Positions 1,209-17,746 of a stretch of 20,648 nt of DNA are shown here, piece after piece. How positions within the stretch are numbered: position 1 is the first letter of the stretch; every line of letters starts with the position of its first letter. The stretch comes from Methanobacterium sp. (lineage in GTDB: Archaea > Methanobacteriota > Methanobacteria > Methanobacteriales > Methanobacteriaceae). The stretch spans positions 845 to 21,492 of the forward strand of contig PMWA01000091.1 in the NCBI GenBank assembly GCA_003166335.1, written 5' to 3'. The notes below the pieces were generated by a model. The model saw only the letters and a program-made list of their open reading frames with translations, was not told the origin of the DNA and made no database searches. Made by a program: the position numbers and the translations under genes.

Positions 1209-1670
1209 ATGCCAAAACATATAGTTTCAGGATTAAAGTATCTGACAGCAGTGGAGCTAATAAGAGACGGATTCAGTCAAAAAGATGTGGCTAATATACT
1301 TGAAATGGATAGATCAACCGTTTCACACTACTTGAATGGTAGAAACCTGTCATGGAACTCCATAGAAGTAGCAGAAATCATAACCAATTTTTGCTCTAGA
1401 GATTTCCTAACTTTGACTTACGCCCTTTTAAATGATTCTGAAAAGACAAGAATCATAATAAAAACTTGTTCAAAAAAAAAATATCAGGCAAAAGTTGAAG
1501 ATTCATGCATAGGCTGTGGACTTTGCGCAGATACTTGTCTGATGAACGCTATCATACTAGATGATCTAAAAGCAGAGATTGATGCTGAATGGTGCTGTGG
1601 ATGTCTAATGTGTGGGGATGTTTGTCCCACTAACTCAATAAAAATTTCGGAGGAAAAAAATGGTAGCTAA
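1209..1670 (+). CDS. fwdH: FwdH: N-terminal helix-turn-helix fused to a 2x[4Fe-4S] ferredoxin domain
   Basis: HTH-like [33 protein letters not shown] and [12 protein letters not shown] motifs; first gene of the fwd operon. Confidence 0.85.
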
Positions 1671-2721
1671 TGTTAAGGAAGTTAAAGCTAAAGAAGTTAC
1701 TGTAAAACGCGCTTCACCAGAAGAAAAGCGAGAACTCTCCTTTAAAGATGAAATCTGCGTTGGCTGTGGCATATGTGAAAAAATCTGCCCAGTACAAGCA
1801 ATAGAGCTAGGCCCTATCAATGCGATAGAAAGAACAGGCGTAGAAGAGTCTAAAATATCAATAGACGAAACTAAATGTGTACTTTGCGGTATGTGCAGTT
1901 CAGTATGCCCAGTAGATGCTTTAGAATTTGATATAGACGAAAAATCCATAAAAGAAATAGAAGGATATCCAAAACTAATCAAATCTGCAGAAATCAGCGA
2001 TGAAGACTGTATTTACTGTAAAGCATGTGAAACAGCCTGCCCCCGTGACGCCATAACCATAGCCAGAGTACTGCCAGATAGATCTAAACTCGTGACTGGT
2101 GAAATCGAAATTGACAAAGAAACCTGCGTAAGTTGTGGTATTTGTGAAGAAATGTGCCCAGCAGATGCTATAACTATGGAACATCATGAACCAACATCCG
2201 CAGAACCCACCGTATCCACCGATATTAATGTGGATAAGGAAAAATGTGTGTACTGTCTAATTTGTAAAAAATCTTGTCCAGTAGATGCTATAAAAGCCGT
2301 ATGTAGAAGCTGCTCTTACGGAGAATACGACCTCAACCCAGAAGACACTGAAATTAAAGGAAGTTCATTCATAGATGAAGAAGCCTGCGTAGACTGTGGA
2401 TGGTGTCAAGAAATCTGCCCTGTAGATGCAGCCCACGTTGAAAAAGCATTTGAAGGTGAACTTTTAATAGATCAAGAAAAATGTGAAGCATGCGGAGCCT
2501 GCCTTGAAATCTGCCCTTGCAATGTCCTATCATTCCCTAAAGAAGAGTTTGGAAAACAAGGCGCTGAAAATGTTAGAGCAGAAGAAAAATACTGCATATA
2601 CTGCGGAGCATGTGAAAAAGCATGTCCAGTAGAAGCTATAGAAGTTAAACGTACAGCAGTTAAACATACTCCCACCAAATCTAAATCATGGGAGAAAAAG
2701 ATGGAATCACTTAAAACCTAG
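1660..2721 (+). CDS. fwdF: Formylmethanofuran dehydrogenase subunit F (polyferredoxin)
   Basis: Eight CxxCxxCxxxCP motifs plus an extra CRSC; position in the operon. Confidence 0.93.
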
Positions 2722-2738
2722 AATCGAGGTGGACAATT

Positions 2739-2972
2739 ATGGTAGAATTAAAAGTAGATCAGGATAAATGTCTGGGATGCGGTAATTGTGTGGTTTCATG
2801 CCCTGTAAACGGAGCAATCAGCCCTGAATCAGCTGGCGGACACGGACCTAAAACAGAAGAAGTAATAATGATGGTGGAAAACGGGTTAGTTAAACTATTT
2901 AATGTGGATAAATGTACTCAGTGTGGAACCTGCCCACTTTTCTGTCCAACCGATGCGATATATCTGGAATGA
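2739..2972 (+). CDS. fwdG: Formylmethanofuran dehydrogenase subunit G (2x[4Fe-4S])
   Basis: [14 protein letters not shown]...GGHGP and [12 protein letters not shown] motifs; GAGGTG RBS. Confidence 0.9.
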
Positions 2973-2982
2973 GGTGTTATTC

Positions 2983-3471
2983 ATGACTTATATAGACAAA
3001 CCCAGTATTTCAAATGTTATAAAATTTGATGAACTCAACGTGGCTAAGGTTGATCAATTAAAGGTAATGCTCAATACAGGAACCGATATCTACCAGGGAG
3101 CTTGTAAAAAAAGAGGATCTACTCTAAAAGACGAGTACCGGAAAGTAGCCGGTGTAGCCTATATGGATCCTAAAGACATGGCTAAATTAGGTGTAGGTAA
3201 TTGGGACAGTGTATTAGTAAAATCTGATTGGGGTGCAGTAGTAGTTTACTCAGCCCATTCAAGGGACGCTCCCCATGAAGGAATGATATTCATTCCAAAA
3301 GGCCCCTGGGCTAATGTAATTGTTAGTAATGAAACATACTGTTGCAGTGACCCCACTTACAAAGGAATTGAAGCCACAGTAGAAAAATCGGATAAAGAAG
3401 TACTATTAATGGCTGATTTAATGAAAGAAGTGTACCAAAAATATACCAAGAAAGTTAAGGAGGTGGATTAA
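2983..3471 (+). CDS. fwdD: Formylmethanofuran dehydrogenase subunit D; start reassigned to ATG 2983
   Basis: [20 protein letters not shown] and PTYKG motifs (molybdopterin dinucleotide-binding domain). GAGGTG RBS at 2971-2976 supports 2983 over the ORF-track start at 2902. Confidence 0.9.
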
Positions 3472-3472
3472 G

Positions 3473-4813
3473 GTGGGATACGAAGAACCGGTAACTGACT
3501 ATGATAAAATCGTTGAAAACTGTACCTGCGCATTTTGCGGGAGTAACTGTGATGATTTAGATTGTCTCGTCAAAGACAATCATGTTGTTGCAGTAAGACA
3601 TGCCTGCCGACTCGGTGCTAGTAAAATCATGGAAGATGAAGACCAGAGACTTAAGGTCCCTATGATGCGAAATGAAAACGGTGAACTGGTGGAAGTAGAA
3701 TGGGAAACAGCTTTGGATGCAGCAGCTGAACTCATTGCTAACTCTGTAAGACCATTATTCTATGGTTGGAGTGAAACATCCATAGAAGCCATGAAACCAG
3801 GTCTTGAACTTACAGAACTGGTGGGAGCAGTTATAGACAACCAGGCCACCATTTGTCACGGACCAACTGTCCAGGCCGTTCAAAACGTGGGTTATCCCCT
3901 CATGACTCTCGGTGAAGTAAAAAACAGGGCGGATATGGTGGTTTATACTGGAAGTAACCCTATGAATGCTCACCCCCGACACTTATCTCGTTACACTACT
4001 TTCCCTAAAGGTTGGTTCAGGAAAAGGGGAAGATATGATAGAACATTGGTTACTTGGGATCCTAAATACAGTGACACTGCTAAACTCTCAGATATCTGGA
4101 TACCTTTCGAAGAAAACGGTGATTATGAATTTGTAAATGCAATAAGAGCTGTTTTAAAGGGTAAAAAACTTAAAAAAGATGTTATAGCCGGCATTCCTAC
4201 AGAAGATATTTATGAATTAACCGAAAAAATGAAGAACACTCAATTTGGTGCTCTCTTCTTCGGACTTGGTTTAACTCACACTTTATCTAAACAGAGAAAC
4301 ATTGACATAGCTATTCAACTTGTACAAGACCTTAATAAATACACTAAATGGGTGCTTCTACCAATGAGGGGCCACTTCAACGTTAATGGTTTTAACATTT
4401 TCATGTCCTATGAAATGGGATTCCCTTATGGTGTTGATTTCTGCAGAGGATACCCTCGATACATGATTGGAGAAACAACCACTATAGATCTTTTAAACAG
4501 AAAAGAAGCTGATGTATTCCTGGTAATTGCAGCAGATCCTGGTGCACACTTCCCAAGCGGAGCCAACATGCACCTGGTAGACATTCCCGTAATCCAGATC
4601 GATATACATTGGGGACCCACCACTGAACTGGCGGATATTGTTCTACCTGGAACATTCATTGGTGTGGAAACTGCAGGAACCAGCTACCGAATGGATTCAG
4701 TCCCACTTAACATGAAAAAGGCTATAGATCCACCTGAAACCTGTAGAGAAGATGAATGGATCGTAACCGAATTACTTAACAGGGTTAAAAAGATAAAAGA
4801 AGCTAGTAAATAG
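3473..4813 (+). CDS. fwdB: Formylmethanofuran dehydrogenase subunit B (W/Mo-bis-PGD catalytic subunit, Cys ligand)
   Basis: [11 protein letters not shown]e-S motif, ACRLG, ICHGP metal-ligand motif, [24 protein letters not shown]. Confidence 0.95.
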
Positions 4814-4823
4814 GTGATTTTCA

Positions 4824-6533
4824 ATGGAATACATATTAAAAAATGGTATTGTATACGATCCTATCAATGAAGTAAACGGAGAAAAAAAGGACGTAATGTT
4901 CAAGGATGGAAAAATAGTTGACAATGTATCAGACAGTGCTAAAGTACTAGACGTTACTGACAAGTTAGTGATGCCTGCGGGAGTAGACGTGCATTGTCAC
5001 CTTGCCGGTCCAAAACTTTGTTTGGGAAGATTATACAGACCAGAAGATGAAAGAAGAGGAGTAAAACCTAAAACTGATATTACCAGGGCAGAAACAGGAT
5101 TTTCCATACCAAGTTGTCCTGCCACAGGATATAGGTACTCTAGAATGGGCTACGGGACTGTAGTGGAAGCTGCGGTACCTCCATTAGAAGCAAAACATAC
5201 TCATGAGGAGATAATTGCTATCCCTAATATCGACATTCCAACACTACCACTGTTTGGAAATAACTGGTTTGTATTGCAATTCGTTAAAGAAGGTAATATA
5301 GAGGATTTAGCTGCATTTGTATCGGCATGGTTAAAGATAACCAAGGGATACGGTGTAAAACTTGTTAACCCCTGTGGAAGTGAAGCATGGGGTTGGGGTA
5401 TGAATGTGCATGGAATAGATGATCCCGCACCATATTGGGATGTAACAGCCAGAGAAGTAATAAGAGGATTGGCTGAGGCAAATGAGATGTTGGGATTACC
5501 ACATTCTATACATGTCCATCCTAACGACTTGGGTCATCCAGGAAACTTCCCTACTACCTTAAATACTATTGATTGCATGAAGGATATTAAAAAGAACAGT
5601 GAATACAGAAATCAGACCATCCATTTAACGCACGCACAGTTTCACTGTTATGATGGTACTAGTTGGAGGGATGTTACTTCCGGTGTCGAACCAGTTGCAG
5701 ATTACATAAACAAGCATGATCATGTAACCATGGATATGGGGCAGGTAACTCTTGATGAAACCACCACTATGACTGCTGATGGACCTATGGAGTACGATCT
5801 ATATGAGCTCACTGGTTTGAAATGGGCTAACAAGGATATTGAATTGGAAACAGCATCTGGGCTTGTTCCTTTCATTTACTCTGGAAGAAACCCGGTTCAC
5901 TCCCTCCAATGGGCTATTGGACTGGAATTAGCTCTTACGATTAAAGACACATGGAAAGTTGCCTTAACCACTGACAGTCCCAACGCTGGTCCATTTATCA
6001 GATATCCAAGAGTCATCTCTTGGTTGATGAGTAACCAGAGAAGAATGGAAATGATGGATAACAAGGAAGTTCACTCTTGGGCAGCGAGAAAATCATCTTT
6101 AGCAACTCTTGACAGAGATTATGATTTCTACGATATTGCAACCATCACTAGAGCTGGACCATCTAAAATCTACGGATTTGAAGATAGAGGTCACTTGGGT
6201 GTAGGAGCGCTGGCAGATATTGCAGTTTACGATCTGGAACCAAACAACTTCGATCCTTCAATAAACGCAGCGGCAGTGGAACAAGCCTTTGGAAATGCTT
6301 TGTACACCATCAAAGATGGTGAAGTACTGGTTAAAGATGGTGAAATCGTTAAAGTAGTATCTAGTAGACATGTTTGGTCTAATGTACAGGGCTTTGAAGA
6401 CGAAGAGAAAAGAGTAATCGAGCAGATCATGCCCATGTTCAATAAATACTATACGGTCAAATTCGAGAACTACAAAGTACATGACCACTACGCAGAACCA
6501 TCATGTGAATATAAAATTAATGCAAGTAAATAG
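4824..6533 (+). CDS. fwdA: Formylmethanofuran dehydrogenase subunit A (amidohydrolase fold)
   Basis: DVHCH metal motif, GVKLVNP (carboxylated Lys), [35 protein letters not shown]. Confidence 0.96.
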
Positions 6534-6544
6534 GGGTGTTAACT

Positions 6545-7354
6545 GTGAAACAAATAACCTTAACTCCAAAAAAGTTTTCCAGCATTGCCCTGGAATTTGA
6601 TGAACTTATTCTAGATGAAATATACAACTGGGATAAAGCAGACTTCGATAAGTATATGGTGCCTATTGGAAACTCTCGTTTCCCACTCAATGACTATTTT
6701 AACATAGAGGTAAAAGGTTCCGCTCAAGGACCTGAAGATGTTAAAATGGTTATAGATGGAGACGCAGGCAGAGTAAAATATATCGGATGTAAAATGAGTG
6801 CCGGAGAAATAATTGTTAACGGCGACGCAGATCTCCAAGCCGGTGCAGAGATGACCGGAGGTTCTTTAACTATAAATGGTAACGCTGAAAGCTACGCGGG
6901 TAGAGAAATGAGGGGCGGAGAATTAACCATAAAGGGTAATGTTAAAGAATACGCTGGAACATCTTATATTGGTGAGTGGAGAGGTATGAGTGGAGGAGTT
7001 ATAAATATCCACGGAAATGCCGGTAAACAACTTGCCGATGCCATGTCCGGTGGTGAAATCTACGTTAAAGGAAACTGTGACATACTGGCCGGTATCCATA
7101 TGACAAAAGGATACATTCAGATAGATGGTGACGTCACTCGCTGGCCTGGCGGCCAGATGAAAAACGGCACTATAGTTATCAACGGAAAACTCGGCAGACT
7201 CCTAGAAGGTTTTGAATCTGAAGGAATTGTAGCCGACCCTGAAGTTGATGGAAGACAGTTAACTGGTAGATACATTAAATACAAAGGGGACATCGGTGTT
7301 AACGGAAAAGGAACTTTATTGCTCAACGCAGAGAAAAACAGAAGTTTACTCTAA
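6545..7354 (+). CDS. fwdC: Formylmethanofuran dehydrogenase subunit C (beta-helix)
   Basis: Repeated GxxMxGGxIxIxGNA motifs and GEWRGMSGG. The GGGGTG RBS at 6533-6538 favours GTG 6545 (alternative start 6536). Confidence 0.93.
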
Positions 7355-8270: not shown

Positions 8271-9317
8271 TTAAAATAAGTGCACCGCAGTAGCCTTGAA
8301 ATAAGTCCAAACCATCTTCCCTATATTCAATTCCATGTCTAAGAATGACTGACGAGTTAAGAAAACCACTAACGGTTCTCCTACATCGATATTTAATTTA
8401 ATTAAAGCACCCTGATCAATTATTTCTTTAACCTGACCCTTGAACACGTTTCGAGCGCTGGTGGTAACTTTTTCCATTGATAAAGTGATGTCTTCAGGCC
8501 TCACTGTCATATGAACGTTACCTTCCTTCTGTTCAACGGAGTAAATCAATATATTCCCCGTGTTTATCACCGTCAGCTTCTCACCACCTTCCCGTGCAGT
8601 ACCTGCAATTATATTCTCAACTCCCACAAAATCGGCTACGAATTTATCCTTGGGATGTCTGAAGATTTCAGTGGTATCACCCACCTGTGATATCTCACCA
8701 TGTCTCAATATAGCGATGCGATCTGCAAGAGCTAAGGCTTCATCAAAGTTATGGGTTACATGTATAATGGTTGTATCAAATTTTTTATTTATTCCTTTCA
8801 TTTCTATTATTAACTCTTCTCTGGTAATCCTATCCAACGCACTCAAAGGTTCATCCATAAGTAGAAGCTTAGGATATATAATAAGAGCACGTGCTAAAGC
8901 TGTTCTCTGCTGTTCACCACCGCTTAAAGTTCGAGGCATGCGATTAGCCAGATGAGATATGCCGAAGAGATCCATAATTCCTTCGACTTCGGTTTTTATC
9001 TCCTCTTTCTTCCGTTTTCTTATGCTCAATCCGAAGGCTATATTCTCAAAAACGTTTTTATGCGGAAATAGCATATAATTTTGGTAAACAAAACCCACTC
9101 CTCTCTGTTCTGGCGGAAGTAAAGTAACTTCCTTGTCATTCATATAGATTTTACCAGAATCAGGATACCAAATTCCGGCAATTAACTCCAGAAGCATGGT
9201 TTTACCAGACCCACTGGGGCCTAAAATAACGAAGTACTCATCATCTTCCACTTCTAGGTTGATGTTCATTAATTTAAATTCTTTCCAATCCCTGGAAATG
9301 TTTTCAATCCGTATCAT
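8271..9317 (-). CDS. wtpC: Tungstate/molybdate ABC transporter ATP-binding subunit with C-terminal TOBE domains
   Basis: Walker [17 protein letters not shown] signature, LLMDEP, HVTH, TSARN TOBE motif. The GGGGTG RBS favours ATG 9317. Confidence 0.88.
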
Positions 9318-10095
9318 AGACACCCCATCCCCTTATAAGCAATCTAACCACTACAAAAAGAGCTAAACATAAAGATATTAGTATAACGGAAATCGATGTT
9401 GCACCGGATAAACTAAAATTCTCGAATTGCTGGTAAATAATGGTGGGTGCAGCCAAGGGATAATAAGCTAAAATTACAATTGATCCAAATTCACTTATCG
9501 CTCTTGCCCAGCACATTATGGATCCCACCACAATGCTCCGTAAAGATAAAGGTAGTGATATAACGAAAAAAGTTCTCATTGAACCAGAACCCAGTGTTCT
9601 AGCAACCTTTTCCATACGAGGATCAACATTTTCAAATCCTTCCCGGGCAGAGTTTACAACAAAAGAAGAACTTACAAATAGCATGCATATAACCACTCCG
9701 GGGAGCGCATTTACAAAAGTGATGCCCAAATTATTAAATGGTGCTCCCAGTATACCACTGGAAGTGAAGACCAGTAGTAAAGCAATACCACTCACAGTAT
9801 GGGGTATAACAATCGGCACATCAATTATTGATTCTATAAATCCCTTTCCAGCGAAATCATGTCTTGCCAGGATATATGCCAGAGGCACTCCAAATATAAC
9901 TGCTAGAATAGTTGCAATTAGAGCAGAATATACACTAACCCATATAGCGCCAAGTACTGCACTATTTTGAAGATTTGAAATGATGGAATTAAGATTCGAC
10001 GATACCATTAGGTTGGCTATGGGGATTAGAATGAACAAAACCAGGAAAGACCCCATAAAAACAAAGAAGATAGTAGTATGATCTAATTTTCTCAT
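9304..10095 (-). CDS. wtpB: Tungstate/molybdate ABC transporter permease
   Basis: [15 protein letters not shown]-like EKVARTLG and WARAISEFG motifs; multiple hydrophobic segments. Confidence 0.88.
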
Positions 10096-10243
10096 TTTGG
10101 ATAATCCCGAGTTATAATGAATCTATTATATATTGAAGAATCTTTTAGATTTCTAATTGTTTAAAGTTTTAGTAAAAGTTTGATATCCAGTATTTAAAAA
10201 AAATAGAAAAAAGTGGAATTTTAATTTTTATTTACTATATAAT

Positions 10244-11308
10244 CTATGGTAAGTTAGTGGCGGAACTGTTAACGACGTATGATTGTAGTATGCTGGGAAC
10301 GTTTGTGGAAATGTTGGTTAATATTGCTGGTGTTATTGGAATAAGATAATTACTTTGAGTTATATTTATTCCAGTAGAACTTAACATTAGTTGTACGTAC
10401 TCTTCTGCTATTTGTTTATCTGGAGCGTTGTTAAGTATGGTGATACCATATATTATTGGCGCCATTTTCACTACTGAGCTGTTATTAGCATCGCTGAATT
10501 GTTTTAATTGTATAGTGTTATAATTTGATTGATATGTTGCGTTAGTTAGTGCTAATTCCTCGGGGAGTGTTACATAGGTAAGATTTGCTGACTGGGCTAA
10601 ACTTTTATATGTGATAAGATAGTCGATGGAGTCGGTTTGTACAAGAGGTGTTAATGCTGCAGCGTCTGCTCCAATCGTTAAGTTACCATGAGGATTCTCG
10701 TTGGTTGGAACATTTATTGTGAAGTTTGTGCCGTTTGCAACAGATGTGATTGCAGAGTTATTGGCGATGAGATTACTGAAGATGGTGCTATTATTGTAGT
10801 ATGAGTTTGCAAGTTGTAACATCATCACAGAGTAGGCTCCTGCTGGATCAGAATTAGGATCACTGACAGCATATTTTACGCCGGGTTGTGATAATATTTG
10901 ATACCAGTTGTTACTATTAATCTGCCTAGCATTTTTACTTTTATTAGTATAGGCGACTACTAATTCGTTAGCAGCGTACTGTATGTTATAACTACTGTAA
11001 TTAGGTATTAACTTCGTGTTGATGAGAACTGCATTAGCTGATATCATAATATCAGGGGTCTTGTTAAGTTGGGTTATCTGGCTAATTAAAGCTGAGCTTC
11101 CCTGGTAAGTTGGTTGAATGTTTACATGGGGGTATTTAGAGTTGAATTGAGCATTAGTTTGATTTATGGGTGTCGCTAAACTATCAGCAGCGTATATAAC
11201 TAGAGTACCATTCTGTGAAGAACCACTATAGGCACTATATCCGTATACGCCGATTCCTACAATGATAATCGCTATGATAACTAATAATGCGATCATTGTC
11301 CTTTTCAT
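10244..11308 (-). CDS. wtpA: Tungstate/molybdate ABC transporter substrate-binding protein (WtpA/ModA family), with N-terminal membrane anchor
   Basis: N-terminal hydrophobic anchor; AADSL, GSS, SDPNSDPAG, DYLITYKS and PIIYGITI motifs; upstream of the permease and ATPase. Confidence 0.8.
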   Translation of the reverse strand: MKRTMIALLVIIAIIIVGIGVYGYSAYSGSSQNGTLVIYAADSLATPINQTNAQFNSKYPHVNIQPTYQGSSALISQITQLNKTPDIMISANAVLINTKLIPNYSSYNIQYAANELVVAYTNKSKNARQINSNNWYQILSQPGVKYAVSDPNSDPAGAYSVMMLQLANSYYNNSTIFSNLIANNSAITSVANGTNFTINVPTNENPHGNLTIGADAAALTPLVQTDSIDYLITYKSLAQSANLTYVTLPEELALTNATYQSNYNTIQLKQFSDANNSSVVKMAPIIYGITILNNAPDKQIAEEYVQLMLSSTGINITQSNYLIPITPAILTNISTNVPSILQSYVVNSSATNLP

Positions 11309-11473
11309 ATATTTTTTCCTCCTAAAAATTTAATTTTTAACAACAATTACTATAGTGAATTACATATTTATACGCATCGATAATTTATTATATACGATTG
11401 ATAAATATTTAATAATAAGTTATAAGGAATTAAAATTCACATTTAAGGGATATTAATCTATCAATAAAAAAAT

Positions 11474-12523
11474 TTATATAAACTTGCATAAAAACAATTC
11501 ATCAAAAAATGGACATCTTCCCCTACATTCAGAGATTACTGTACATCCCCTGCACTCTGATTTACAATTCGCATATATATTACTCCGATAATTGGCAAAT
11601 AAATCATGCCATACATATTCAAAATTAAATTGTTTTAAATTATAACTGTACACATTACTATTACAAAAGGAGCAGGGCTTTACATTCATCTTCTCATCTA
11701 TATATACACTGAAAAATCCACATTCACAACTATCCAAAAACTCCTTATCCAACTTAGTATTTTTCATTAAAACCGGAACAAAACAAGCATCAAAACCTAT
11801 ATTTAAACATGTAAACGGATTTTGAACCAAGTCTAGAAATAATTTCAATTTATCAGTGGATTTAATAACATCACCATTTACAGCACGTCCAGTGGGTTTA
11901 TAAGTTAAAAATATGATAGAATTGAAAGATTTTAAGTATTCATCATATTTCCCACTTAAAATTTCAATTGATTGGGGTAATGTTTTCTCTGAAACAACAT
12001 AATGAATATTAGTGCGAATTTTTTCATTTAAAAGACTTGATCCAAGTGTTGAAAGCTCTTCCAATGATAAACTCTCCCGATGGGGATCCCAGGATATGGC
12101 GACGGCACCACAATACTTCCTAGTTGCATCTAGGTTCTCCCTGTTGAAAAATCTACCGCAGGTAGTGTAATTAGGTATTATTCCAAATTCTTCCCGTGTT
12201 ATCTGAAGTATATTGTTAAATTCTGGGTGGAGTAACGGTTCACCACCACCCAATGCCACCTGGAATACTTTTCCATAGTTTGTACTGCTCAATTCGTTTA
12301 GAACATATCTATAATCTTCAACGGACATGAAATCTCCATTTTCATCACTCGACCTGTAACAGTGTTCACATCCATTAGTGCAGTAATTAGATATAGATAT
12401 ATCCGCAATCTCTGGCCAAGGTGCTGAATAGGGATTTTCAGAAAAACTATCACCCCACCTGAAGGTTACACCAGTTTCAGGAATACCCACAAAATTATAT
12501 CCATTAAAATGCTTTCTAATCAT
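11474..12523 (-). CDS. Radical SAM enzyme with C-terminal SPASM domain, function unknown
   Basis: CTNGCEHC (CxxxCxxC) and GGGEPLLHP; SPASM cysteines in CECG...VKPCSF and CKSECRGC...CRGRCP. Confidence 0.9.
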   Translation of the reverse strand: MIRKHFNGYNFVGIPETGVTFRWGDSFSENPYSAPWPEIADISISNYCTNGCEHCYRSSDENGDFMSVEDYRYVLNELSSTNYGKVFQVALGGGEPLLHPEFNNILQITREEFGIIPNYTTCGRFFNRENLDATRKYCGAVAISWDPHRESLSLEELSTLGSSLLNEKIRTNIHYVVSEKTLPQSIEILSGKYDEYLKSFNSIIFLTYKPTGRAVNGDVIKSTDKLKLFLDLVQNPFTCLNIGFDACFVPVLMKNTKLDKEFLDSCECGFFSVYIDEKMNVKPCSFCNSNVYSYNLKQFNFEYVWHDLFANYRSNIYANCKSECRGCTVISECRGRCPFFDELFLCKFI

Positions 12524-12585
12524 GATTATATTAAAAAAAATAATTTAGAGTACATAATTCTAAAAAATTTTTAATTTAAGAAGTT

Positions 12586-12987
12586 TTAATCGCAGGTACA
12601 TTTAGGGTCAATAGTTTGGGTAGCACCTACGCCATAAAGATCTCGACCTTTACCTTTAACCACTATCCAATTAATTAAATTCCACATCTCCTCATCCGAC
12701 AATTTACTTAAATCCATGCTGGCAATATCATCTGGATTAATATCATCTAACATGATGGATTTACCAATTTTAAATTTTTTCACAGTAAATAATACTTCAT
12801 CACTACCAATCTTAGTTTTATTACCTTCTGTTTCAAGTTCATCTCTCAAAAATGCTAGTAACTGTACTATCCCCTTTTCACCAGTTTTCTGGAAGTGCTC
12901 AATATTTGCCTTAAAAATATCTTCCTTAGCTGTTAAAATGAAACTGGTTGAACTACTATTAGTTACAAAATCCCCTCTAATTTTCAT
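12586..12987 (-). CDS. Hypothetical 133-aa protein with N-terminal MKIRGDFVTNSSSTSF motif; putative substrate or partner of the rSAM enzyme
   Basis: GGAGG RBS at 12998-13002 places the start at ATG 12987; co-oriented with and 62 nt upstream of the rSAM gene; ends in CTCD. Confidence 0.8.
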   Translation of the reverse strand: MKIRGDFVTNSSSTSFILTAKEDIFKANIEHFQKTGEKGIVQLLAFLRDELETEGNKTKIGSDEVLFTVKKFKIGKSIMLDDINPDDIASMDLSKLSDEEMWNLINWIVVKGKGRDLYGVGATQTIDPKCTCD

Positions 12988-13160
12988 AAAACCAAAACCT
13001 CCCATTATTAATATCAAAAAATAATTACTTTTTTCCAGTTAATTCTTTAATTTTATATTGTTTATTTTTTTCCTAAAATTTATTCAAAAAAAATTAATTT
13101 TATAAAAAGACAAAAATCTGTTCATGAATATTATTAATTTAATTCAATTATTTATTAATA

Positions 13161-13414
13161 TTAAATAAATCTTTTTTTCTCTAAGGGAATAACCGCTTTA
13201 AGATGAGTTTCTCCATCTAAAATCTTAACATCTATTCCATAGGCTTTCCTCATTTTCCTAAGTCATAACTTCCTCTGGTACTCCTTTAGCCATGATAGTA
13301 CCATTATTAGGATAATTATCTGATTGGATGAGATATGAATGTATGATCTGGGAAATGAGAAGTCATTATAACTGACAACTATTCCTTTGCTAAATTATCA
13401 TATTTTTTTCAATA
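13161..13414 (-). pseudogene. Degraded 3' remnant of a FepC/BtuD-type (iron/cobalamin-chelate) ABC ATPase; absent from the ORF track
   Basis: Minus-strand translation across frameshifts and stops: DNLAKE*LSVIMTSHFPDHTF / SNQIII / NNGTIMAKGVPEEVMT*EN / RKAYGIDVKILDGETHLKAVIP. This includes the H-loop and the GxPEEV...YG C-terminus typical of this ATPase class. Confidence 0.75.
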
Positions 13415-13416
13415 TA

Positions 13417-13830
13417 TTATTTTTTCCTCCATAGTAAGACCCATCGGGGGTTAGTGGTAGGGTGTTTTAGTGTTTCATTGTCTTTTTTGATTAAATTCTT
13501 TCTAAGAAAATTTTCGAGTTTTATTTTATCTTCTTTTTTAATTTCATTTACATTCCAGCCGTTTTTCCATAGGTAACGTGTCATGGCATCTTCAATGTTA
13601 TTATACACTGGAGGGGTCTGATTTTTAAACATTTCCACATTAGCGTATATATCTATTTGATAGAGCATGTTTAAGGCGTAGATGAAATTGGGGTGTTGAT
13701 GATATTCAACCTCCATGTATTCAGCTACTTCTTTATCAAATTGATCGGATATTGTTCCACATTTCATTCCAGTCAATATCCTCAATTTTTGAGATTGTAT
13801 TGTTTATATTACTATCCCTATCAGAACTAT
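13417..13830 (-). pseudogene. Class I SAM methyltransferase-like gene with the catalytic core deleted
   Basis: An N-terminal IEDIDWNEMW segment (IDWNEMW at 13757-13777) is joined out of frame to a C-terminal part (HPNFIYALNMLYQIDIYANVE...WVLLWRKK). No GxGxG motif lies between them. The 5' boundary is approximate. Confidence 0.6.
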
Positions 13831-14214: not shown

Positions 14215-14796
14215 TTATTCATTTTCTGGGTTTATACACCATTTGCAGATGGTTTCGTTTTCATCTTGTACAAAGGATTCACCGCAAATGTTGCATATTG
14301 TCACTTTCTTTTTATGTTTTATGGGAAGGGGTAGATCGATTAAGTACCAGCTATAAACATCTGCATCTGCTTTTATGAGTTCGTTTATACCATCTTCATG
14401 GGAAACTTTAGCTTCGTTCATATACCATGCGTGGAATATGGGATAATCAACGGTTTTTTCAGGGTCTAGAACGATTCTGACACTTTTAACAGTTTCTTCT
14501 CCCGGTGGGGCTGCTTTGTTTATAGTTACAGCCATCTTTCCATGATCTATAATTTTCAAGCCTTTATTTCCTATGGTACTGCTGCATAGTATTTGGAATG
14601 TGTCTGGAAGGCAATTCTGGGTTTCGCAGGTTACGAAAATTCGATCACCCTCTTTTATGTCCAGTAATCTTCTGGCTAGGTTGAGCATTTGCAGACCTAT
14701 GAATGCTCCAGTACTCAGGTATCCGTGAAAGGGGATAATTTTCTCTATTTCTTCCCGTAAATCGGGGTCATCTATTTTTTCTATAATTTCATCCAT
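14215..14796 (-). CDS. fmdE: FmdE-family protein with C-terminal zinc finger
   Basis: FHGYLSTG, ETQNCLPD.FQ...STIGNKGL and GKMAVT motifs; C-terminal CNICGE...CKWC. The GGGTG RBS favours ATG 14796. Confidence 0.82.
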   Translation of the reverse strand: MDEIIEKIDDPDLREEIEKIIPFHGYLSTGAFIGLQMLNLARRLLDIKEGDRIFVTCETQNCLPDTFQILCSSTIGNKGLKIIDHGKMAVTINKAAPPGEETVKSVRIVLDPEKTVDYPIFHAWYMNEAKVSHEDGINELIKADADVYSWYLIDLPLPIKHKKKVTICNICGESFVQDENETICKWCINPENE

Positions 14797-15027
14797 TATT
14801 TTTACACCCAATTAAAATCGTTAAATATTAAGTAAAGAGGTTTTTTTAATTTTCCGATAAATTGTATAATGAAATTAAAAACTTTTAGTAAAAGTAGGAG
14901 TCTATTTCATCGTAAAATATTTATGAACAAGTTTTGAGTTTAGTATTATAGTATAGTTTATGAAATCAATTTACAGTATAATTTTAAGTTTGGTTTATTT
15001 TTTACTAGAAACTAATTTTTTTTAATG

Positions 15028-15222: not shown

Positions 15223-16239
15223 TTATTTGGATGTGGCTTCAACTAGTTTGTTCATTTGTTTTTGCCAGGATGCGCTGCGTACATTTTCGAGGTTAATTTT
15301 TTCTCTTTTTACGATTATGCCTTTTTGAGGGCAGGCTTTAGCACATGCTCCGCAGAGAATGCAGAATCTCTCATCAACTACGGATTTACCATCGACGATG
15401 GATACTGCATTGCAGGGGCAAATATCAACACAGGCATGGCAGGAATCTCCTTTACATTCGAAATCTTCTTTGAAGATTATTTCCCCTTCAAATGGTTTGG
15501 TAACGGTTGTTGCATCTACGGGGCAGACTTCTTGGCACCATCCACAGTTTATACATGTTTCTTCATCGATGAAAGCGTTTCCAGTAATTTCAGCGTCTTC
15601 AGGATGTATTTCATACGCTCCGTAGGAGCATGATCTGCACGCGGCTTTTATTGCTTTAACTGGGCAACTGCGTTTGCATATGAGACAATAAACACATTTA
15701 TCTTCATCAACCGTGATTTCAGGTTCTTCAGGATTTTCTTTGTTCATGGTTATTGCTTCTGCGGGGCACATTTCTTCACAGATTCCACAGTATATGCAAG
15801 TATCTTTATTTATATCTATTTCACCAGAAACCAGTTTAGTTCTTTCTGGTAGTTTTCTAGTGACGGTTATGGCTTCTGTGGGGCATGCAGTTTCGCATGC
15901 TTTACAGTATATGCAGGTTTCTTCGTCGATGTTTGCTTTCTGCTCCCATTTTGGATAGGCTTCGAGTTCTTTAATGTTTACGTCATCTATCTTGAATTCC
16001 ATAGCTTCAAATGGACATGAAGCTGCGCATAATCCACATAATGCGCATTTTTCTTTATCTACTTTCACGTAATCCATGTCTAGTAAGCCTCTAGCTATGG
16101 GTACTAGGGGACCTAATTTCAATGCTTCGGTTGGGCAAATGTCTGTACATATGCCACATCCTACACATTTTTCTTTTTTGTAGCTAAGAGAGCGTTTTTG
16201 GCTTCCTTCTCTTTCTACGGTGGGTTTTACCTCAGACAT
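15223..16239 (-). CDS. fwdF: Second FwdF-like polyferredoxin (paralog of 1660-2721)
   Basis: Eight ferredoxin motifs plus CRSCSYG; shares blocks such as [31 protein letters not shown] and CGWCQE with fwdF. Confidence 0.85.
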   Translation of the reverse strand: MSEVKPTVEREGSQKRSLSYKKEKCVGCGICTDICPTEALKLGPLVPIARGLLDMDYVKVDKEKCALCGLCAASCPFEAMEFKIDDVNIKELEAYPKWEQKANIDEETCIYCKACETACPTEAITVTRKLPERTKLVSGEIDINKDTCIYCGICEEMCPAEAITMNKENPEEPEITVDEDKCVYCLICKRSCPVKAIKAACRSCSYGAYEIHPEDAEITGNAFIDEETCINCGWCQEVCPVDATTVTKPFEGEIIFKEDFECKGDSCHACVDICPCNAVSIVDGKSVVDERFCILCGACAKACPQKGIIVKREKINLENVRSASWQKQMNKLVEATSK

Positions 16240-17245: not shown

Positions 17246-17746
17246 GTGAAAAAATTGGATTTAATTAAGTACAAACCAATCGGGATTATAAAATCCCCAT
17301 TTAAAAACTTAGAAGGCATGCCTATACAACCAATCGGTGCTTGCGGTGTTACTGGAGAAATACATATTGAAGACGAGTATAAGGAGGGACTTACTGATCT
17401 AGAGGAATTTTCCCATATAATGCTCATTTACCATCTTCACTTGTCAAGAGGATATTCCTTAAGTGTTAAACCTTTTTAGGATAATAAGATGCATGGTGTG
17501 TTTGCAACTAGGGCTCCAAAACGCCCTAATCCTATAGGATTATCAGTGGTTCGTCTTATAAAAGTGGAGGGTAATGTATTACATATTTCAAATGTTGATA
17601 TTGTGGATGATACACCTTTACTTGATATAAAACCGTATATTCCTCATTTTGATAAAGATGAGGGTGAAGAACTATGTATCGGGTGGTTTGAGGATAAGTA
17701 TCATGAAGCGGTTAATAAAAAGTCAGATAATAGATATTCAAATTAA
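17246..17746 (+). pseudogene. tsaA: tRNA m6t6A37 methyltransferase TsaA/TrmO family, interrupted by an in-frame TAG at 17477-17479
   Basis: The two ORF-track pieces are in the same frame (KPF*DNKMHGVFATRAPKRPNPIGLS); PIGIIKSPF, LEEFSH and DTPLLDIKPY motifs. Confidence 0.8.

Follow-up and report, generated by a model that had tools for sequence, protein, structure and literature searches.

Two adjacent genes in a 20,648-nucleotide stretch of DNA from Methanobacterium sp. (the whole stretch that was analysed, hereafter the window) encode a small protein with a 16-residue N-terminal tag and, directly downstream, a radical SAM enzyme, and it is likely that the small protein is the substrate of this enzyme. 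The system is real and widespread, and no description of either the tag or the enzyme-tag pair was found in the literature searched (most subscription papers being outside its scope). It works like the known radical SAM maturases of proteins and peptides, yet lies within none of their families. We consider it probable that the enzyme covalently modifies the tag segment Asn10-Ser13.

Both genes lie on the minus strand. The partner, 133 aa long (12586-12987), is preceded by a Shine-Dalgarno GGAGG (12998-13002) placed 10 nt before the ATG, its C-terminus reads CTCD in the translation of 12586-12987, and 62 nt separate it from the downstream radical SAM gene (349 aa, 11474-12523), in agreement with the coordinates and content given to this unit by the first-pass annotation. 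The tag comprises residues 1-16 (12940-12987), with residues 1-11 as the predicted enzyme-binding segment. In the structure model of the free partner, residues 1-10 are disordered (pLDDT <50), the first strand begins at Ser12 and a folded alpha/beta body follows, which supports the earlier expectation of a folded protein rather than a secreted peptide. The C-terminal CxC (12592-12600), typical of the methanogen branch and present in 63/66 of its homologues with an intact C-terminus, is a candidate metal ligand. Profile searches matched the partner to no Pfam or NCBIfam family. The genome holds one tag gene (tag HMM E 2e-12, the next match being at 0.19), which differs from a near relative at 28 synonymous and 7 non-synonymous codons; judging from the sequences, the tag gene is under purifying selection and both genes of the pair are intact. 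Contigs from RNA libraries (four peat studies) were considered as a sign of expression and set aside, since they cover both genes but also the decayed remnants nearby.

The neighbours of the pair had been described as decaying, and this is true upstream, whereas downstream the tungstate/molybdate ABC transporter wtpABC (8271-11308, minus strand), which directly follows the pair, is intact, with WtpA above the TIGR03730 cut-off. The upstream remnants (13173-13785, minus strand) are those of a metal-uptake cluster with an iron-type ABC ATPase and a methyltransferase, and comparison with the cluster of a relative, where it is intact (L180), places the ATPase remnant at 13173-13399 and the C-terminal half of the methyltransferase at 13420-13758. 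The context further includes an FmdE-family gene (14215-14811, minus strand; family profile match). Elsewhere, the window carries a full fwd-type formylmethanofuran dehydrogenase operon followed by two DUF2097 genes (1209-7354, plus strand), another FwdF-like polyferredoxin gene (15223-16239, minus strand) and a TrmO/TsaA-family gene broken into two ORFs (17246-17746, plus strand). No Rfam family matched in the window. A ModE-like box was looked for upstream of the tag genes and none was found; a palindrome upstream of wtpA (11378-11396, minus strand) is the window's sole match to the ModE-box pattern and presumably resembles such a box.

Among 369 distinct tags, which were gathered by the tag motif itself, K2, R4, N10, S11, S12 and S13 are 98-100% conserved, and in the fetched loci 279/280 motif matches start at the start codon. 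Since Ser11-13 are encoded by both TCN and AGY codons (352 genes), selection acts on the protein level. A 32-column profile detects the tag in at least 19,250 protein clusters at 50% identity, a lower bound because the first tag profile misses variant tags in 5/5 records, and none of the tagged protein clusters scanned belongs to a curated family. The tagged partners are 90-200 aa long. One fold common to all their bodies was considered and is not borne out, as profile comparison joined only 2 pairs among 13 groups; between the family of the window partner and the domain that is fused to the enzyme in a sister clade, the match is limited to the first 36 columns. Fold searches with the window partner gave nothing clear (best Z 3.5, rmsd 3.3, 63 aligned, loosely ferredoxin-like) and no BFVD match at E 0.001, while the fused-clade domain reached at best Z 3.4 (rmsd 10.1, 64 aligned) and retrieved only its own relatives from BFVD. 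Additionally, the ESM Atlas search gave unnamed clusters only, and a search for the window partner in longer or fused form found none, which is weak evidence.

The tag is tightly linked to this radical SAM clade. Among 251 genomes of Methanobacteria, the enzyme is present in 24, the tag in 23 and neither in 227; the tag adjoins the enzyme in 23/23 tag-bearing genomes, and the 24th enzyme-positive genome holds only a C-terminal enzyme fragment. In loci selected by the enzyme, the tag lies within 10 kb in 74/80 viral, 72/80 metagenome and 7/7 GTDB cases (146/160 for viral and metagenome loci together) and tag genes are co-oriented with the enzyme in 287/287 and 76/76 instances, counts which lean upward because the enzyme profile derives from enzymes that adjoin tag genes; all the linkage counts include kin and are not independent. 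The tag is present in 37/38 enzyme clusters at 70% identity. The 14 tag-less loci among the 160 lie near contig ends, with tag-side sequence of at most 3.7 kb (viral, downstream) or at most 330 bases (metagenome, upstream). The linkage of the tag to this clade, the measurement of which had been put forward at the first reading as a check, is supported. Searches that used only the window enzyme as query carry less bias than the profile built from tag-adjacent enzymes, and these retrieved RB16 and KP15, with no tag within 6 kb and two tag genes each some 20-24 kb away, a Rhizobium plasmid with an adjoining tag gene, and a Methylobacterium plasmid in which a variant tag is fused to the enzyme. 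When loci were selected by the tag, no enzyme was found within 4 kb in 14/80 viral cases; five such records were searched whole, and the enzyme was elsewhere in three and absent from two (78-84% complete). Phage loci hold 1-8 tagged genes, mostly 3-6, and the laboratory coliphages RB16 and RB43 carry the enzyme-tag system, which makes it accessible to genetics. What had been taken for an archaeal system is mainly a phage and bacterial one, of patchy occurrence in Methanobacteriaceae (24/251 genomes).

The window enzyme belongs to the radical SAM superfamily (PF04055, 48.3 bits, cut-off 29.5) and carries the CxxxCxxC cluster motif at C48/C52/C55 (12359-12382, minus strand). Its top profile is phrog_7293, of unknown function (E 4e-28), and it passed no named NCBIfam family cut-off. 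For the tetrapyrrole enzymes of the NirJ/AhbC/AhbD type, the scores were 53.4 vs 500 (NirJ2), 31.5 vs 650 (NirJ1) and 27.6 vs 515 (NirJ), so the enzyme stays below the cut-offs of these small-molecule families, membership of which would have spoken against a protein modification system. Named RiPP maturases (WgkB, MftC, SkfB, AmcB, GeoRSP) gave at most 40 bits vs cut-offs of 265-650, the prokaryotic viperin profile NF038283 34.5 bits vs 180, and the tungsten oxidoreductase radical SAM maturase TIGR04317 31.9 bits vs 380. The nearest solved structures are, as weak matches, the peptide modifiers SkfB, SuiB and PqqE, and a Vagococcus plasmid matches the enzyme at 24% identity. The C-terminal region (11486-11785, minus strand) is of SPASM type, with eight cysteines from C247 to C346: the TIGR04085 SPASM profile scored 23.8 bits, below its cut-off of 27, and the seven-cysteine SPASM pattern is present, with C266, C284, C324, C327, C333, C337 and C346 conserved. 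Across 40 homologues, C247, C266, C284, C324, C327, C333 and C337 show no variation and C346 is retained in 97%, which confirms the full SPASM cysteine set first noticed; these eight cysteines would suffice to ligate two auxiliary clusters completely. C284 is followed by Ser. At the other end of the protein, an N-terminal beta-hairpin (residues 17-30, 12434-12475, minus strand) is the predicted docking site of tag residues 1-5, which would extend it by one strand, and the hairpin residues G18 and R22 are present in 149/151 enzyme homologues. Many phage-array enzymes (including those of loci L003, L005, L017 and L058) have an expanded cluster motif, its first and last cysteines being 7-14 residues further apart.

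In a complex model run with SAM and three clusters included, the enzyme-partner pair scored 0.70, against 0.00 for the best of 3 controls, and passed a mark that is reached by 116/157 solved and 2/215 mismatched pairs, counts that are only roughly valid here. The runs agree in at least 46% of contacts, with a partner pLDDT of at least 42, and the confident contacts involve tag residues 1-11 only: residues 1-5 are placed antiparallel to enzyme residues 19-23, and the remaining contacts fall on barrel strands. Among the contacted enzyme residues, 21/35 are at least 90% conserved, vs 68/349 overall (p 2e-8). The partner fold is uncertain in this model, which is not used to name the residue next to SAM, and the pass may owe something to likeness with solved radical SAM-peptide complexes. 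The model, in which the complex-modelling check proposed at first reading came out in favour of docking through the tag, supports binding, not catalysis. Taken with the fusions, it points to the tag as the likely recognition and reaction site, as had been suggested.

A sister clade of the enzyme carries variant tags. In 11/12 viral loci and in the Methylobacterium plasmid protein, a tag variant is fused to the enzyme N-terminus, and in RM378, Ma-LMM01, phiYS40 and Lak-A2, which hold unfused relatives, neighbouring genes bear variant tags, the tag type thus switching with the enzyme clade. The two enzyme clades are homologous (99.9%, with an alignment over 277 columns) and have D41, N118, T120, K209, D245, S272, Y274 and S285 in common, whereas C247, C266, C284 and the C-terminal cysteines are present in 0/12 fused enzymes. 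The analogy with SPASM enzymes on which the first-pass annotation relied is therefore weakened. If, as the shared Asn-Ser-Ser-Ser core suggests, the chemistry is the same in both clades, it would be independent of auxiliary clusters, and an oxidation of the anSME type is hard to square with a clade that lacks the auxiliary cysteines. The fused domain has invariant H18, D106 and H107 residues, which resemble a separate site. A triceptide-like aromatic crosslink is disfavoured, since the aromatic position varies in this second clade (F 68%, L 13%, H 8%). Two further observations concern the same clade: in Lak-A2 the enzyme gene is followed by five variant-tag genes in tandem (L372:5890-8400), readable with NCBI table 15, and two of the fused-clade enzymes (P0227 and P0241) have inteins inserted at the CxxxCxxC motif.

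Based on these observations, we infer a mechanism in which tag residues 1-5 would bind as an extra strand on the N-terminal hairpin of the enzyme and residues 6-11 would be threaded into the barrel, hydrogen abstraction then taking place within Asn10-Ser13. Given modification, it is quite possible, if somewhat short of probable, that the product is a carbonyl derived from Ser11 or Ser12, whether formylglycine (by oxidation) or a pyruvoyl-type N-terminus. The latter route would proceed by radical dehydration, followed by loss of the 10-residue leader, and would fit both the clade without clusters and the absence of a protease gene. Precedents for the favoured chemistry exist in anSME, viperin and DesII. 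Once modified, the folded partner would be matured or activated. The same module serves different hosts: phages have arrays of up to 8 partners, bacteria a single partner next to NLR-like defence proteins, and the methanogen branch a single partner with a Cys-pair tail.

Several known systems share parts of this arrangement. The anSME/AtsB enzymes have eight C-terminal cysteines, a target Ser near the N-terminus of a folded sulfatase and, in anSME, an Asp as catalytic base; the window enzyme shares the eight cysteines, and its putative target Ser likewise lies close to the start of a folded protein, but this partner has neither the C/SxPxR motif nor a sulfatase family match, Ser replaces the Asp after C284, a sister clade lacks auxiliary clusters, and one enzyme faces many dissimilar partners. 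In the RRE-dependent radical SAM maturases (SkfB, SuiB, PqqE), the leader is an added beta-strand and the core is threaded into the barrel, which is also what is predicted for the tag; a strand is likewise predicted on hairpin residues 17-30, yet a Pfam profile search gave no RRE family match, the leader is only about 5 residues long, the binding element is a short hairpin instead of a full RRE, the substrates are folded proteins, and no protease or exporter is adjacent. Finally, glycyl-radical activases act on a protein target and viperins perform a radical dehydration, auxiliary clusters being obligatory in neither, as also appears to hold for the present radical chemistry. In contrast to activases, there is no adjacent glycyl-radical enzyme and no glycine in the invariant tag core, and the scores are far under the cut-off.

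A quick tree of 105 enzymes (SH-aLRT support only) splits a phage-array clade, a SMEK-NACHT-linked clade (12/80 metagenome loci) and a 58-row cellular clade. The cellular clade contains a 40-row, largely Avs2-linked group, Avs2 being adjacent in 36/80 metagenome loci, and a group of 14 rows in which the window enzyme stands together with those of other Methanobacteriaceae and of Syntrophomonas; the partners in this group carry a terminal cysteine pair, and this methanogen/syntroph branch spans six genera plus Syntrophomonas. No Avs2 match was obtained in the window, in its genome or in 5 other carriers (control positive in 3/14). A four-gene cassette of a SMEK-NACHT protein, an unknown protein of about 130 aa, a tagged protein and the radical SAM enzyme recurs in loci L323-L341 and L355, and looks like an undescribed defence operon. 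The methanogen setting is of another kind. Among 20 fetched regions, which come from 19/24 enzyme-positive genomes, 16 hold genes for FmdE, DUF364, XdhC, an Fe-type binding protein, ModA/WtpA or molybdopterin enzymes, 3 (whose tagged proteins lack the CxC) are in other surroundings and one is truncated at the end of its contig; as the carrier genomes are kin, we offer no statistical test on this metal context. The pair in Syntrophomonas comes directly after a binding-protein gene that has a Mo/W riboswitch in front of it, but a single such riboswitch is not specific, since S. wolfei has at least 15 Moco RNAs (PMC2408646). We tentatively propose, as a possibility below even likelihood, that the methanogen-branch partner with its Cys-pair tail helps to handle Mo/W or another trace metal. 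Separately, a Peptococcaceae genome has the pair after nitrogenase-like, homocitrate-synthase-like and AnfO genes (L183:30-6950), and in two Methanobacteriaceae genomes the tag gene is doubled in tandem, lacks the CxC and lies away from metal clusters (L408, L409, L415), one of these loci being near AIPR; in genome G277 the enzyme is broken by a stop.

The nearest published analogue is the pair Avap1 (radical SAM) and Avap2 (DUF6375) of the KpAvs2 operon (PMC11564622), in which a radical SAM enzyme and a protein of about 135 aa serve an Avs2 receptor, the architecture also seen in our nearest sister clade. According to the accessible part of that paper (PMC11564622), Avap2 binds KpAvs2 and is required for defence, Avap1 is required against T2, an Avap2 deletion failed and the role of neither protein is known; no chemistry is reported there for them. 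By eye, Avap2 has an MK-led, Ser-containing leader, as in the tagged proteins, and Avap1 an N-terminal hairpin similar to that of the window enzyme. Unlike the tagged partners, Avap2 lacks the NSSS core, and unlike the KpAvs2 operon as described, the window has no Avs2. PF19902 (DUF6375) matched neither the window partner (E 0.1) nor the other tagged proteins scanned; DUF6375 locus searches found 0/151 and 0/401 genomes, with the control silent too, and motif scans gave nothing or one false match.

Covalent modification of the tag has to be weighed against other readings of the same evidence. It is unlikely, though worth serious attention, that the tag is a docking peptide only, with the partners as non-covalent subunits or regulators and a small molecule (a defence signal resembling a nucleotide, or the precursor of a metal cofactor) as the substrate of the enzyme. 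The fusions and the docked strand are compatible with this too, docking also suits a regulatory or scaffold subunit, and the invariant His/Asp residues of the fused domain (H18, D106, H107) look like a site of its own; the enzyme has weak viperin matches and a BtrN match, and Avap1 was at first likened to viperins (PMC11564622). The viperin scores are, however, far under the cut-off, the tag is modelled inside the barrel at the substrate position, against invariant residues, and one enzyme serves up to 8 partners whose bodies show no detectable relationship. We regard as improbable an activase that would put a stable backbone radical on a tag residue, the partners being small radical enzymes. 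Non-glycine backbone radicals exist, auxiliary clusters are dispensable in one clade and a flexible target segment enters the barrel in the complex model, but the target sits at the exposed N-terminus of proteins of 90-200 aa, the tag has no conserved relay cysteine, and aerobes are among the hosts (Rhizobium, Methylobacterium; Microcystis and Thermus phages).

Two remaining readings give the enzyme or the pair little to do. In one, the tag would be the C-terminal piece of a split intein, and a very short one, or else a self-cleaving Asn|Ser site, with the enzyme as bystander or trigger: the invariant Asn followed by Ser resembles what we take to be an intein C-terminal junction, and the disorder boundary falls near Asn-Ser. 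The window genome (99.4% complete) contains no intein/Hint domain, with 0 matches where the control was positive in 6/14 genomes, the penultimate His is absent, and strict linkage and fusion to one enzyme family would be left unaccounted for, so that this reading was rejected as having hardly any probability. In the other, the pair is a relic of a defence operon which lost its Avs2 receptor and is without a current role here. That the nearest large sister clade is Avs2-linked (36/80 metagenome loci), that Avs2 was not found in the window genome or in 5 other carriers and that the upstream neighbours are decayed would agree with it; nevertheless, both genes are intact and the tag gene is under purifying selection, and the branch of six genera plus Syntrophomonas keeps the Cys-pair tail, repeatedly in metal clusters, which makes a relic a poor candidate. 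Covalent modification of the tag remains our preferred reading.

In its fullest form, this preferred reading takes the tag as a portable 16-residue address on tens of thousands of folded proteins, at which one radical SAM family, with no need of auxiliary clusters, would install a Ser-derived carbonyl or radically cut the leader; bacteria would use it to arm NLR-like immune receptors, large phages to mimic or counter such receptors by tagged arrays, and methanogens and syntrophs to mature a Mo/W-handling protein. That all of these parts should hold jointly is rather unlikely. The tag itself is found in phages as well as in the defences raised against them, and also in the metal metabolism of methanogens, and assigning a chemistry on the short tag peptide would cover all of the at least 19,250 tagged clusters. 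Such a chemistry might explain why receptors of the KpAvs2 type travel with a radical SAM enzyme, and a genetically encoded tag this short, with one enzyme to modify it, could find use in protein labelling.
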